From: Escherichia coli
GTDB taxonomy: Bacteria; Pseudomonadota; Gammaproteobacteria; Enterobacterales; Enterobacteriaceae
Length of the DNA: 64,000 nt
Assembly (NCBI RefSeq): GCF_045037415.1
Contig: NZ_CP173438.1
Direction: 5' to 3' (one strand)
The translations under genes were made by a program, and so were the position numbers. The notes under the pieces were generated by a model. That model saw nothing but the letters and a program-made list of their open reading frames with translations, was not told the origin of the DNA and did no database searches. Numbering within the stretch: the first letter of the stretch is position 1; each line of letters opens with the position of its first letter. Positions 12,507-15,240 of the stretch are shown in pieces.

Positions 12507-12618
12507 TCGTTTTGTGATATGCCGCAGCAACTTGTCATGGCAGGATACTGCGGCTGATTTGTGAATTTAAATAGTGTGTTTATTGCTTTATATATAAAGG
12601 ATTTAATGGATTACATAT

Positions 12619-13995
12619 CTATGATATCCCTGAAATGTCCTCTTCAAGCTCTTTTACTGATTTCGCAATTTTAAATTTAAATTTTCTCTCTATTTCACTA
12701 TTGCTAAGTTTTTTTTCATTCTCTTTCCCTATCCACATAGAAACAATTTCTCGTTTCTGAGATATATGTAGATTGTCAAAGTTAGGTATGTATTTAAAAG
12801 TCTCCGCTCTACCCCTGCGGAGTTCATAGAAAGTTTTAATCAAAGACTTTGGTTTTATTTCTGATGAAAGGCCGAATCGGCGGATAAGATTATTGATCGT
12901 ATGATTAACAGCTCGAAGTTGAGCTGTTGACGTTATTTGTGAGAAGTACGATACCCATCCCAATCGTTTACCTTCAAACACACATCCCGTAATTCTAAGA
13001 TTTAGTTTCCACTGACAATATGCAACAGCTCGTTCTTTATCGTGCTTATTTTTAGCTTGTAGTAGAGCGTGTCTATATGCAGTAAAAATTTTTGCTAAGG
13101 ATGACTCAAATCTAAGAATGCTCTCATGTTTTATCAATAATTCTCGATTTTTTATGTGGTAGCCCAAAAAGTTGAAACTTTCATCCAAGCTGCCTACTTT
13201 GGATTTTGAGTTCTCTTCATTTAATGGATGTGGGTTTAAATTTAATGATTGAAGCTTATCAATGATATGAGATGCAATTTTTGTTGCTTGATCTTTTTGC
13301 GTTAAAATAAGAATGTCATCAACGTATCGCATGTACCATATGTCATGCATTTTATTGATTTCATTGTCGAAATCAGATAGTGATATTTCAGCTAAAATGT
13401 TTGATATTGCTAACCCCTGAGGTACTCCTCTGGTATTATTAGGGACACCTTTGCTTCCTGTACTTCCACTTACAGTAGGCACGATTAATGATGATGTTAT
13501 TAACTGCCTAATTTCTTTTTTTCTAATCTTATTTTTTATTGCATTAAATATCAATTTATGTTCAATTGAAGGATAGAAACTTTTGAGATCTATTTTTGCA
13601 TATTCAGCATATAGATCGCTGTTTAATGCATTTTTCAATAAGTCAATTACTGTATGTGGTAGTTTTAATCTGGAGTTAGGATATATTTCTGTAAGGCATT
13701 CACAGAGAGCCCTAAGGGTAATTCTGTCCCTGGCAGTTGGTATGGAAATCTGTCTGGGGATAGAGTTAGCCCCTTTAGATATTAATTTTTCTTTATATGC
13801 TGTAAATTTATAATTTCCACAATTAACCTTTTCAAAAATAAAAGTGATCTCATTCTTTATTGTTAAATCAAGTTTTGATGGACGAATCCGATCTATGCCA
13901 ATCGCTCCTGATTCTTTGATTTTTTCATTGTATACTTTTAGAAGGTTTTTTTTCGAGAATGACTTTTTAAAAACTCTGCTTGCATTCATAGTCAA
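12619..13995 (-). CDS. Reverse transcriptase (unclassified; retron/Abi/UG-like defence-type RT)
   Basis: 458 aa; RT motifs in order: GIDRI (motif 1), RQISIPTARDRITLRAL (motif 2), DLKSFYPSI (A), GVPQGLAISNILAEI (B), YVDD (C), FLGY (E). Start is TTG at 13995 or ATG at 13989; overlaps the upstream membrane-protein gene. Confidence 0.85.
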   Translation of the reverse strand: MTMNASRVFKKSFSKKNLLKVYNEKIKESGAIGIDRIRPSKLDLTIKNEITFIFEKVNCGNYKFTAYKEKLISKGANSIPRQISIPTARDRITLRALCECLTEIYPNSRLKLPHTVIDLLKNALNSDLYAEYAKIDLKSFYPSIEHKLIFNAIKNKIRKKEIRQLITSSLIVPTVSGSTGSKGVPNNTRGVPQGLAISNILAEISLSDFDNEINKMHDIWYMRYVDDILILTQKDQATKIASHIIDKLQSLNLNPHPLNEENSKSKVGSLDESFNFLGYHIKNRELLIKHESILRFESSLAKIFTAYRHALLQAKNKHDKERAVAYCQWKLNLRITGCVFEGKRLGWVSYFSQITSTAQLRAVNHTINNLIRRFGLSSEIKPKSLIKTFYELRRGRAETFKYIPNFDNLHISQKREIVSMWIGKENEKKLSNSEIERKFKFKIAKSVKELEEDISGIS

Positions 13996-14671
13996 TCCAA
14001 AGACATATTAATGGGAGGATATAAAGGCCGACAGTAATAAACATTCGACGTAATATCCATAATTTAACAATTATTTTTTCTTTTTGTGTGGGGAGTCTAG
14101 TCGTAAGTCCAACTTGAGTTACCCTTGAAACTTTATCATCTATGTCACGATGATTCTCAACCTCATTGAGCAAATTAAAATATTTTTCTTTCTGTTCAAG
14201 AGTTAACTGTTGGCCGTTATTAATATCAAAATAGAGTCTCTGTAGTGCAATATAATTCCTTCTCATGGCTATTGCTCGACCACGATAATCTAGGTTAGAT
14301 ACGATCAGAGAAATACCCAGTAGAGCCACTGAAAGTATTGCCGCAACGATATCTGTATTATCTCCTAGAAATTTTGGAAATCGTAACGTTATAATTGAAA
14401 GTACCGCACTCAATATAGCATACCAAACGAGGATAAATTGAGAGTGTTTTTCAAGCCATTCTAGTCTATGGTGCGCTTGAATACGGGCTTTATATGTAAA
14501 CCAAATATTTTCATGCATAAAATATCCTTTTAAAAAGCGGAAGGGGCAGGATATATTGGAACCGTTGAACATCCTGCTCGGCAGGATCAGTGAGCATAAG
14601 CTCAACAGTAAAATATTACTGTTCATTATCAGAGCCGCCCTTGCATACGCAAGAGGAAAAAACTGCCCCAT
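13967..14671 (-). CDS. Small membrane protein with 2-3 predicted TM helices (candidate effector; SLATT-like architecture not verified)
   Basis: Hydrophobic segments FILVWYAILSAVLSIITL, IVAAILSVALLGISLIVS and MFITVGLYILPLICLWI around a charged helical region. Alternative start at ATG 14518 with AAGGA 7 nt upstream would give about 183 aa. Confidence 0.6.
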   Translation of the reverse strand: MGQFFPLAYARAALIMNSNILLLSLCSLILPSRMFNGSNISCPFRFLKGYFMHENIWFTYKARIQAHHRLEWLEKHSQFILVWYAILSAVLSIITLRFPKFLGDNTDIVAAILSVALLGISLIVSNLDYRGRAIAMRRNYIALQRLYFDINNGQQLTLEQKEKYFNLLNEVENHRDIDDKVSRVTQVGLTTRLPTQKEKIIVKLWILRRMFITVGLYILPLICLWIDYECKQSF

Positions 14672-14680
14672 CCTTTTGAA

Positions 14681-14709
14681 TTATTACAATTTAATGATCT
14701 TAAAGTCAA
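14681..14709 (-). promoter_or_regulatory. Putative sigma70 promoter for the membrane-protein/RT operon
   Basis: Minus strand reads TTGACT, 17-bp spacer, TAATAA, a few nt upstream of the ATG at 14671. Confidence 0.35.
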
Positions 14710-14762
14710 TACAAGTGAATTGTGTCCAGAGATGATGAACTAAATCACTCGTCAGCAAATTC

Positions 14763-14982
14763 CTAGGTATCTTTCAGAGTGTCCTGAACAAAAATTTTAA
14801 CTGAATCTTTATCGGCGGTGCGTGTAACAGAAAGGTCATCATTGCTGGTGGCTTTTACGATCACCTCTACATCTTCATAACGCTTACCGGTGCGTCGGGT
14901 TAATTCTTCCTTCTAACGCATCCACAGCGCTGTTTGGCAGTTTAGTCATTTTCTCTTTGGCTATGCAGATCTCAATACGCAT
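14763..14982 (-). pseudogene. DinI-like protein gene with an internal frameshift
   Basis: N-terminus [24 protein letters not shown] resembles DinI; frame breaks near 14905-14915 and the DinI-like reading continues in another frame to the stop at 14763. Confidence 0.6.
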
Positions 14983-14997
14983 AAAAGTCCCTCTACA

Positions 14998-15041
14998 CTG
15001 TGTTTGTATACAGTATCATTTTTAACTGTATGGATAAACAG
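14998..15041 (-). promoter_or_regulatory. Two LexA (SOS) boxes upstream of the dinI-like gene
   Basis: CTGTgtttgtatACAG and CTGTatggataaACAG, both CTGT-N8-ACAG, about 15-60 bp upstream of the start. Confidence 0.55.
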
Positions 15042-15240
15042 TGTCAAGGGTGAAGGAAAGTGATTTTTTGGGGCATGCATGGGGCAAAAATATTTGTTGT
15101 GGGGCATTTTGGGGCATGATTGGAACACTTTGTTACATATGAACTTTGCCGATTTTTATATGACATGGAAATACAACGCTTTGATTCTTCTAAATAAAAA
15201 ACATGCTCTTGGGCGTTCTTTAGTGATTTTTAAAAATTCC

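Follow-up and report, generated by a model that had tools for sequence, protein, structure and literature searches.

The window analysed here is a stretch of 64,000 nucleotides from Escherichia coli (NCBI RefSeq assembly GCF_045037415.1, contig NZ_CP173438.1), and the region of interest, positions 12507 to 15240, begins with the first base past the stop codon of the tail fibre assembly gene tfa. It lies at the right end of a decaying lambda-like prophage that is integrated in yecE and appears to be defective; its J gene is split. On the minus strand, opposite to the tail genes, this region carries an ncRNA, a small membrane protein gene and a reverse transcriptase (RT) gene, in that order. The RT gene (12619..13989) encodes 456 residues from the ATG at 13989 (WP_029701056.1); the mechanically called open reading frame begins at a TTG at 13995 and is two residues longer. 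Residues 3–458 align with positions 1–429 of the 429-position PADLOC profile RT_UG17 (8.4e-159), and Pfam RVT_1 matches as well; the runner-up PADLOC model is Drt3a (1.6e-37), and weaker matches include Drt2 (1.3e-24) and Drt9 (2.7e-18). The catalytic YVDD motif is found at residues 222–225, and the protein ends in Ser456, a terminal serine that is invariant in the 11 sequences compared.

The gene upstream (13967..14518, minus strand) encodes a SLATT_5 membrane effector of 183 residues (WP_000545005.1), matched by PADLOC RTasSLATT (2.4e-57) and Pfam SLATT_5 (4.3e-28), with two strong hydrophobic segments at 25–48 and 54–78 and a further one near the C-terminus; its end, including the stop codon, overlaps the start of the RT gene by 23 nt. 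A longer mechanical open reading frame of 234 residues (13967–14671) was rejected as the SLATT gene: its first 51 residues cover the ncRNA, the profile alignments begin only at residues 51–53, and RefSeq also annotates 183 residues.

The ncRNA itself (14537..14673, minus strand, about 137 nt) is predicted to fold into four stem-loops within a basal stem, with a single-stranded template loop downstream. Its minimum free energy is -54.2 kcal/mol (z = -5.67), and a consensus structure from 10 homologues in 7 genera has 35 pairs in five helices that are 97% paired, with compensatory changes at 12 pairs; none of 500 shuffles did as well, and controls slid along the alignment were about 50% paired. 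A search of Rfam returned no family for the ncRNA at either threshold (Rfam 15 does not hold the DRT10 ncRNA), and its sole match was IS009, inside tfa (12265–12463, 218 bits). A predicted sigma-70-type promoter at 14680..14709 (minus strand; TTGACT, 18 nt, AATAAT, the second hexamer being preceded by TG) matches the consensus at 10 of 12 positions and ends 6 nt before the ncRNA starts. Between the end of the ncRNA and the SLATT ATG lie only 18 nt, too few for a separate promoter, and the predicted one probably drives the whole operon as well as the ncRNA.

Within the template loop, we predict an A-B-A′ template at 14555..14567 (minus strand; ncRNA positions 107–119), reading CAAC-GGUUC-CAAU, with A-B as 5′-CAACGGUUC-3′ (14567 down to 14559) and A′ as 5′-CAAU-3′ (14558 down to 14555). 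Both CAA triplets are invariant in 10 of 10 aligned homologues, and B varies in sequence and in length (5–7 nt). An 8-nt register, GUUC-AACG-GUUC, was considered as the main template and set aside, in that its second GUUC is not conserved, in contrast to the invariant CAA...CAA, which fits the mapped template of the published system Eco3DRT10; as an alternative giving a repeat of the CGTTGAAC type, this register is possible in this allele. The cDNA product predicted from the main register consists of tandem 9-nt repeats, 5′-GAACCGTTG-3′.

Taken together, the core of the region is very probably a complete tripartite DRT10 module (UG17, subtype A, like Eco3DRT10), carried as anti-phage cargo in a prophage slot, with its activity assigned by homology. 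The sequence features that define DRT10 are all present: a UG17 RT, a coupled SLATT_5 protein, an ncRNA of about 137–143 nt, the A-B-A′ arrangement, and YVDD together with the terminal serine. The preliminary description had seen here an RT operon with a leader, which is indeed present; it had left the system unnamed, and we can now name it DRT10 and recognise the leader as the template ncRNA. The system has already been described, and its context here is an ordinary one.

Eco3DRT10 (Tang et al., bioRxiv 2025, PMC12632851) has the same gene order, overlap, RT length and YVDD motif, the same Ser456 as primer, and an ncRNA that agrees in length and fold, its template, CAAUGAUUC/CAAU, lying likewise at positions 107–119. 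The Eco3 RT record has 458 residues, of which two at the N-terminus are spurious, and S456 is the primer (PMC12632851); this published length, start and primer numbering fits our ORF exactly. A copy in strain IHE3034 carries the exact published template, CAAUGAUUC-CAAU, and compared with it our RT is 95% identical, the SLATT protein 90% and the ncRNA 131/137. We would equate the IHE3034 type with Eco3DRT10 (named accession OKX54664) through their identical template, length and numbering. Among the matches listed in the supplementary tables of PMC12632851, the IHE3034-type N-terminus was found, and neither the accessions nor the N-terminus of the window's proteins. A tyrosine recombinase adjoins some of the systems tested in that study, and likewise the module of one of our comparison loci (L004). 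Our RT has 23 amino-acid differences from the Eco3DRT10-type allele, and through the template substitutions U110C and A112G the predicted repeat is GAACCGTTG instead of GAATCATTG, and A and A′ match exactly over only 3 nt instead of 4. A possible dG:rU wobble would add to this short match; mutagenesis indicates that a 3-nt match is usually enough for DRT10 (PMC12632851). Among the sampled E. coli loci, our template allele outnumbers the Eco3 type by 13 to 3.

Other known systems help to place the module. The DRT10 of Escherichia sp. E3659 (UG17-A; Sanchez-Nieto et al., bioRxiv 2026) likewise has the order ncRNA–SLATT–RT, a tandem-repeat cDNA and a template flanked by a repeated triplet; compared by its description, it differs in its ncRNA (143 nt, six predicted stem-loops), in its template, ACUUAUUACU, and in its repeat, which is 7 nt long. 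DRT9 (UG28) and DRT2 (UG2) are also Class 2 UG/Abi RTs with a dedicated ncRNA template, and DRT9 is protein-primed, with an ncRNA fold said to resemble that of DRT10 (PMC12632851). They differ from DRT10 in their products (poly-dA from a U-tract for DRT9, a concatenated gene made by rolling-circle copying for DRT2) and in showing no comparable dependence on a SLATT partner. A parallel with telomerase (TERT plus RNA) has been argued, in that a short template is recopied after realignment on a downstream repeat and has a structured 5′ template boundary element (PMC12632851); unlike telomerase, DRT10 is bacterial, protein-primed, immune in role and does not extend chromosome ends.

Experiments on close relatives (PMC12632851; 10.64898/2026.04.29.721553) suggest, by homology, how this allele may work. 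The constitutive promoter would yield the 137-nt structured ncRNA, and read-through would give the mRNA for SLATT and RT. The RT would bind the ncRNA and prime DNA synthesis with its own C-terminal serine, copying the 9-nt template CAACGGUUC as far as a boundary set by the preceding stem-loop, whereupon the nascent DNA end would slip back to the downstream CAA(U) and the cycle would restart. The predicted output is long single-stranded tandem repeats, (GAACCGTTG)n. Host exonuclease I (SbcB) would restrain these repeat products or their second strand, and phage infection would upset the balance, with a phage SSB-like protein as trigger, as reported in one paper; both SbcB dependence and such a trigger have been reported for the DRT10 family (10.64898/2026.04.29.721553). 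The SLATT membrane protein would then be activated and halt the infected cell, so that the phage would be unable to spread. The two preprints give opposite accounts of the cDNA during infection, a fall in one and a rise in the other (PMC12632851; 10.64898/2026.04.29.721553).

The preliminary description had also called the stretch much more AT-rich than the tail and host genes beside it, with long A/T runs and codon usage rich in AAA, AAT and ATT, and all three observations held. The GC content of 12507–15240 is 0.349, compared with 0.549 for the tail genes (1–12506) and 0.500 for host DNA (15241–64000); it is the minimum among 1226 sliding 2734-bp windows, with z = -5.2 relative to non-overlapping windows. 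The stretch has 11.7 A/T homopolymers of 5 or more per kb vs 3.3–3.9 per kb elsewhere, about three times as many. GC at third codon positions is 0.27 for both RT and SLATT, compared with 0.39–0.48 for stf, the macro-domain gene and tfa and 0.49–0.59 for yecD, aspS, nudB and yebC. The share of AAA, AAT and ATT codons is 19.3% in RT and 13.7% in SLATT vs 4.8–11% in the neighbours, and that of ATA 4.4–4.6% vs 0–1%; by a synonymous-codon chi-square, the island differs from the host (p = 4.5e-53) and also from the tail genes (p = 1.1e-12). The dip is uneven, with 0.33–0.35 for RT and SLATT, 0.48 for the ncRNA, 0.43 for a remnant of a dinI-like gene and 0.35 for the attR arm. The AT-rich stretch is thus a composite of DRT10 cargo and some 500 bp of moderately AT-rich phage backbone (14736–15244, GC 0.387).

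Comparison with related prophages places the edges of the cargo more exactly. The DRT10-specific insert (12577..14735, 2159 bp, GC 0.337, its genes on the minus strand) is bounded by breaks in homology on both sides: on the left, backbone homology to slots that are empty or hold other cargo stops at 12576–12585, and on the right, a conserved dinI block begins at 14736 in 8 of 8 comparisons that have the block. The right flank from 14736 is common to 8 comparison loci and the left flank (tfa and/or a hairpin) to 6, and the DNA in between is absent or different in relatives, as expected for prophage cargo. Composition alone therefore misplaces the edges of the island: the cargo is only about 2.16 kb, the dinI-like gene and the attR arm belonging to the backbone.

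The left flank consists of tfa (11916..12506, plus strand; Pfam Caudo_TAP 1.7e-44), which is 87–95% identical to the tfa of prophages with other cargo, and a GC-rich hairpin, GCCGCAG...CTGCGGC, at 12521..12556 between the convergent tfa and RT genes. The hairpin folds on both strands and is probably a two-way terminator, though no T run follows it. Window positions 12521–12576 correspond to 3896–3952 of an empty-slot locus (L036) at 82% identity; the hairpin is thus kept in the empty slot, and by this alignment it is backbone rather than cargo. On the right, the block 14736–15047 is kept at about 91–96% identity in every compared prophage regardless of cargo. It contains the dinI-like pseudogene (14763..14982, minus strand), labelled "frameshifted" by RefSeq, which differs from the intact 82-aa genes of two other loci (L002 and L007) by a 1-nt insertion and two TGG-to-stop changes. 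The SOS-type promoter of this gene, found in a promoter scan (14998..15047, minus strand; TTGACA, 18 nt, AAAAAT), is overlapped by two LexA-box matches, at 14998–15013 and 15026–15041; the motif CTGT-N8-ACAG occurs 4 times in the window vs 0.82 expected by chance. We therefore do not follow the preliminary description in counting the dinI-like gene as part of the acquired module. The attR arm (15048..15244) comes next, with four TGGGGCA(T/A) repeats (repeat family D2). Uninterrupted yecE of other genomes aligns from 15245 onward, which puts the prophage/host junction at about 15244/15245, at the 5′ end of yecE; a yecE N-terminal fragment runs from 15340 down to 15230.

The space between these flanks is a variable cargo slot, as had been proposed, and related prophages at yecE itself differ in its content: it is empty in one (L036) and differently filled in two others (L007 and L008). 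Among the compared loci the slot measures from 117 bp, when empty, up to 3.8 kb. The slot is also empty in L039, and elsewhere it holds a small hypothetical gene (L005), an acetyltransferase (L006), a YkgJ-like gene (L007), the T3SS effectors EspW/EspM2 (L037, from O157:H7), a recombinase with ydfK (L038) or a TIR-RT (L040). In our sample, then, the contents include DRT10, a TIR-domain RT and probable surface-modification or exclusion genes. The slot occupies the same place as the cargo ("moron") region of lambda-like prophages or the lambda b region, between the tail-fibre genes and the attachment site, and its contents are similarly variable and AT-rich, including T3SS effectors and other defence genes; unlike the lambda b region, it is bounded on the right by the conserved dinI-like gene and not directly by att.

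The DRT10 module adjoins the same attR arm at yecE in 51 of 317 genomes that have this arm, and prophages at prfC and dusA carry it in the same slot at 94–100% identity. Its range of attachment sites (yecE, prfC and dusA), together with its pairing with differing tail-fibre genes, upholds the view that the RT operon is horizontally mobile cargo. An insertion borne by a transposon or IS element was ruled out, in that neither terminal repeats nor a target-site duplication were found: no transposon-type direct or inverted repeats flank the insert, where only chance-level short matches occur, and the ORF list and RefSeq annotation show no transposase in the module. The module most likely passes between prophages by recombination in the conserved flanks, judging from these alignments.

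Recent acquisition had been read from the low GC content, and here the conclusion survives in part, on other grounds. Homologous modules in Serratia, Klebsiella, Pantoea and Morganella have a GC content of 0.36–0.40, in flanks of 0.50–0.64; the more distant loci were obtained by protein search and contig look-up. Other cargo of the tfa–dinI slot is likewise AT-rich (0.34–0.47). From these sequences, low GC is a long-standing trait of the DRT10 gene family and, being common to the whole family, it has no value for dating the acquisition. It is the identical copies in prophages at other attachment sites that point to recent exchange: the copy in IAI39, at a different attachment site, has at most one mismatch over 2256 bp (bit score 4161 vs 4167). 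The module is thus mobile, and recency is supported by this near-identical copy rather than by base composition.

Of 5426 E. coli genomes, 196 have the DRT10 module; the query 12507–15240, which includes the conserved block 14736–15047, has partial matches in 1683 of the 5426. A DNA search at distant sensitivity found no match among 50,697 deposited phage genomes, and a single-protein scan of IMG/VR found relatives at 94–100% only. Might the module be a decayed or silenced passenger that serves no defence, kept either because a defective prophage cannot be lost or because H-NS silences it? AT-rich DNA is a typical H-NS target, the prophage is decaying, with J split and three lesions in the dinI-like gene, and an IS5-family element interrupts the module in two other genomes. 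We nevertheless regard this as quite unlikely, since the RT and SLATT ORFs are intact and full length with their catalytic and priming residues, the ncRNA keeps all of its five helices and the A-B-A′ pattern, and the promoter is near consensus; moreover, at least 1000 contigs carry the RT sequence, the module is 100% conserved in many ST131 genomes while neighbouring genes decay, and close alleles are active when cloned with their native flanks (PMC12632851).

We give far less credence to the idea that the low GC simply reflects the composition of the phage right arm (mutational bias or AT-rich regulatory DNA), with no separately acquired module. The AT-richness of backbone 14736–15244 would agree with it, as would the macro-domain gene and tfa, which at 0.46–0.49 lie below the other tail genes; against it, prophages that share these flanks have other cargo in place of the 2.16-kb segment or do without it, the segment itself is found at three attachment sites and beside differing tail-fibre genes, and its homologues stay low in GC in unrelated contexts of other genera. 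Finally, a retron of the Retron-Ec48 type (RT, msr/msd ncRNA and two-transmembrane effector), making branched multicopy single-stranded DNA instead of tandem repeats, is scarcely tenable: the layout of ncRNA, small membrane protein and RT is superficially alike, several homologue records are titled "retron-type reverse transcriptase" and PADLOC gives weak matches to 2TM effectors (3.6e-5), but the sole retron-type RT model among the 25 PADLOC models listed scores 5e-14 vs 8.4e-159 for RT_UG17, the ncRNA has no long terminal inverted repeats (a1/a2) around an msd-like hairpin and folds in the DRT10/DRT9 manner with its template loop beyond the final stem-loop, the priming serine at the C-terminus is conserved, and the Rfam search gave no retron msr family.

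Reading the locus as DRT10 turns an anonymous RT operon with a leader into a specific, experimentally characterised defence system, and it yields a testable prediction for this allele, the 9-nt GAACCGTTG repeat. A wider and more speculative reading, which we hold to be rather improbable, is that the tfa-to-dinI slot of lambda-like prophages is a general uncatalogued defence hotspot like those of P2 and P4; we found no paper that describes this exact slot in such terms. Near-identical DRT10 modules in the slot carry the different template alleles CAACGGUUC and CAAUGAUUC, and should the repeat sequence have a part in sensing or in escape from phage counter-measures, these alleles would represent a diversified cDNA product and not neutral drift. 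The module's survival intact within a decaying prophage is a small example of a host retaining a phage's defence gene. The module is common in pandemic ST131, and an SbcB-dependent, potentially toxic RT system there bears on phage therapy and on differences in gene essentiality between strains.

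The stretch 12507-15240, at the right end of the lambda-like prophage in yecE, has a GC content of 0.349, compared with 0.549 for the tail genes on its left and 0.500 for the host DNA on its right, and in a sliding-window profile GC falls from 0.5-0.6 to 0.30-0.40 across ~12500-15250. It is the minimum among all 2734-bp windows of the 64 kb (z = -5.2 relative to non-overlapping windows). GC3 is 0.27 in both the RT and SLATT genes, whose codons are 19% and 14% AAA, AAT and ATT, with ATA and AGA/AGG abundant and CTG nearly absent. Synonymous codon choice differs from that of host genes (p = 4.5e-53) and of tail genes (p = 1.1e-12), and A/T runs occur at about three times the frequency seen in the rest of the window. 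Because of these GC, codon and A/T-run figures, the compositional distinctness of the stretch, which the preliminary description had noted along with its long A/T runs and AAA-, AAT- and ATT-rich codons, is real and far beyond chance. Further low-GC patches lie at 20.0-20.7 kb, over yebB and yobI, and at ~59.8-60.7 kb, coinciding with an Rfam cspA-type thermoregulator (60502-60962); Rfam also identifies the SraC/RyeA and SdsR/RyeB sRNA pair at 44870-45014.

The left flank of the stretch consists of the side tail fibre gene stf (7988-11014), a 300-aa macro-domain ORF (11011-11913, + strand) whose start overlaps the stf stop codon, and the tail fibre assembly gene tfa (11916-12506). The macro-domain ORF matches Pfam Macro (5.9e-19) and PHROG 2613, a family of unknown function (3e-147), and ends in His-rich repeats resembling those that end the tail fibre; it might act as an enzyme attached to the fibre or serve in counter-defence. 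A full-length, 218-bit match to Rfam IS009 (12265-12463, + strand) lies wholly within the tfa coding sequence, and what Rfam lists as an RNA family may be no more than a conserved part of a prophage gene. The features of the stretch itself are all on the - strand: a reverse transcriptase (12619-13989) that matches PADLOC RT_UG17 over its whole length (8.4e-159), a 183-aa SLATT_5 protein (13967-14518) whose stop codon overlaps the RT start by 23 nt, a 137-nt structured RNA (14537-14673) with a near-consensus promoter match just upstream, and a dinI-like pseudogene (14763-14982) carrying a one-base insertion and two TGG codons turned into stops. RefSeq annotates an identical region with the same four protein-coding calls. 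On the right, yecE contributes its first 32 codons and is followed by yecD, aspS and other host genes; since uninterrupted yecE from other genomes aligns from 15245, the prophage ends at ~15244. Its attR arm (15048-15244) contains four copies of TGGGGCA(T/A) within 60 bp (15066-15125), possible arm-type binding sites for the integrase.

The name DRT10 for UG17 RTs with a SLATT partner comes from a 2025 preprint (PMC12632851), and a 2026 preprint (10.64898/2026.04.29.721553) takes their study further; three parts are needed, an ncRNA upstream of SLATT, SLATT and the RT (PMC12632851; 10.64898/2026.04.29.721553). In the published mechanism, the C-terminal residue of the RT itself (Ser456 in Eco3DRT10, an experimentally tested example) serves as the primer, and the enzyme copies a short template, A-B, located in a loop past the last stem-loop; next, the end of the DNA shifts to pair with A', a downstream copy of the template start, and repeated cycles yield long tandem-repeat single-stranded DNA. 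Judged by its sequence, the RT operon of the window is DRT10, with features that match the parts of this mechanism. The RT has YVDD at 222-225 and Ser456 at its C-terminus, the terminal serine being kept in all 11 homologues, of which the most distant is 60% identical. The ncRNA folds (z = -5.67) into a basal stem around four stem-loops, after which 22 nt form a single-stranded loop. When aligned with nine homologues (two further E. coli alleles, two Serratia species, Klebsiella, Pantoea, Pectobacterium, Morganella and Pseudomonas), it gives a consensus of 35 pairs, with 97% of cells paired and compensatory changes at 12 pairs; none of 500 shuffles was as good, and slid controls were ~50% paired. 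The template loop reads CAAC-GGUUC-CAAU (ncRNA positions 107-119), with both CAA triplets invariant in all ten sequences and a middle segment variable in sequence and length. A retron is excluded as an alternative by the PADLOC profile scores, the way the RNA is built and the priming serine.

At the same positions the allele of E. coli IHE3034 reads CAAUGAUUC-CAAU, exactly the published Eco3DRT10 template plus realignment site, and this allele is 95% identical to the window's in the RT, 90% in SLATT and 131/137 in the ncRNA. The Eco3 RT record has 458 residues, two N-terminal ones being spurious (PMC12632851 supplement), which fits the TTG/ATG start alternative of the window RT. These three observations make the window's module a close allele of the tested system, and by homology its predicted product would be (GAACCGTTG)n. 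The window's template is the commoner allele among sampled E. coli loci (13 vs 3).

Pairwise comparison with twelve other prophage ends separates cargo from backbone. The block from the dinI stop codon (14736) to 15047 is 91-96% conserved in all compared loci with a dinI-like gene (which L008, at yecE, lacks), whatever adjoins it on the left, so the dinI-like gene does not belong to the acquired module, contrary to what had been proposed. Homology to module-free prophages on the left stops between 12496 and 12585, and a hairpin at 12521-12556 also occurs in L036, a yecE prophage with an empty slot, where 117 bp separate the tail-fibre genes from dinI. Together these place the DRT10-specific insert at ~12577-14735 (2159 bp, GC 0.337); the other 509 bp of the stretch are backbone (GC 0.387). 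No terminal repeats or transposase were found flanking the insert. In L005, a prophage end at another attachment site, the 3′ end of tfa and the downstream 80 nt are repeated in degenerate form (4244-4424, 78% identical to window 12407-12585) directly before dinI; this second copy points to recombination in the flanks as the route of exchange and looks like a scar left when cargo was swapped by recombination between tfa copies.

The proposed insertion into a variable cargo slot is borne out by related yecE prophages: the attR arm occurs at yecE in 317 genomes, and DRT10 adjoins it in only 51. In O104:H4 (yecE) the slot holds small unrelated ORFs. Among prophages at other sites, it is empty in L039 (dusA) and contains a small hypothetical gene in L005, a serine acetyltransferase in L006, a recombinase with ydfK in L038, and the T3SS effectors EspW and EspM2 with DUF1076 genes in O157:H7 strain 7636 (L037 338-3495, ssrA), where a tfa 3′ remnant lies just before dinI. 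In E. coli Jnd12 (L040 2018-3622, prfC) the slot gene is annotated 'TIR domain-containing anti-phage reverse transcriptase', a second defence RT, unrelated to DRT10, at the same position. DRT10 itself occupies the slot in IHE3034 and IAI39 at prfC and in O177:H21 at dusA, and 196 of the 5426 complete E. coli genomes have it. Slot contents have a GC of 0.34-0.47 throughout the compared loci; these presence/absence comparisons exclude pure backbone composition as the source of the low GC.

The claim of recent horizontal acquisition stands in part. The module of IAI39 has at most one mismatch in 2256 bp (bit score 4161 vs 4167 for a perfect match) and sits at prfC in a prophage with different tail-fibre genes, which shows recent movement; IAI39 shares the same frameshifted dinI remnant and is 99.5% identical over 12387-15047. 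Low GC, however, is not by itself a sign of recency: homologous modules have a GC of 0.36-0.40 in Serratia (flanks 0.64), Klebsiella, Pantoea and Morganella and reach 0.50 only in Pseudomonas, so that the family stays AT-rich wherever it resides in this survey.

The literature already covers the system with its ncRNA and mechanism, as well as its presence in E. coli prophages, and the clade of this module is represented in the published dataset. New here are the exact anatomy of the allele, the predicted repeat, the true cargo boundaries and a small slot survey. The ncRNA (14537-14673) has a GC of 0.48 inside an island of 0.34, and looking for a slight GC rise of this kind may be useful for locating such RNAs in AT-rich defence loci.

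The tail tip gene J (3697-7170, + strand) is split into at least three ORFs and is called 'frameshifted' in RefSeq for an identical genome; the prophage therefore probably cannot make infectious particles. The dinI-like pseudogene keeps two LexA-box matches (14998-15013 and 15026-15041) over a TTGACA-18-AAAAAT promoter match, and the same lesioned copy accompanies DRT10 in IAI39. In NZ_CP196261.1 and NZ_CM190148.1 an otherwise identical stretch has ~1.2 kb of extra length and contains an IS5-family transposase; these copies of the module have probably been inactivated. The window's module could conceivably be an inactive passenger as well, but all of its defining features are intact. In many ST131 genomes the DRT10 genes, the helices of the ncRNA and the promoter are all undamaged and show no differences, a pattern that would fit a useful defence gene being kept in a decaying prophage.
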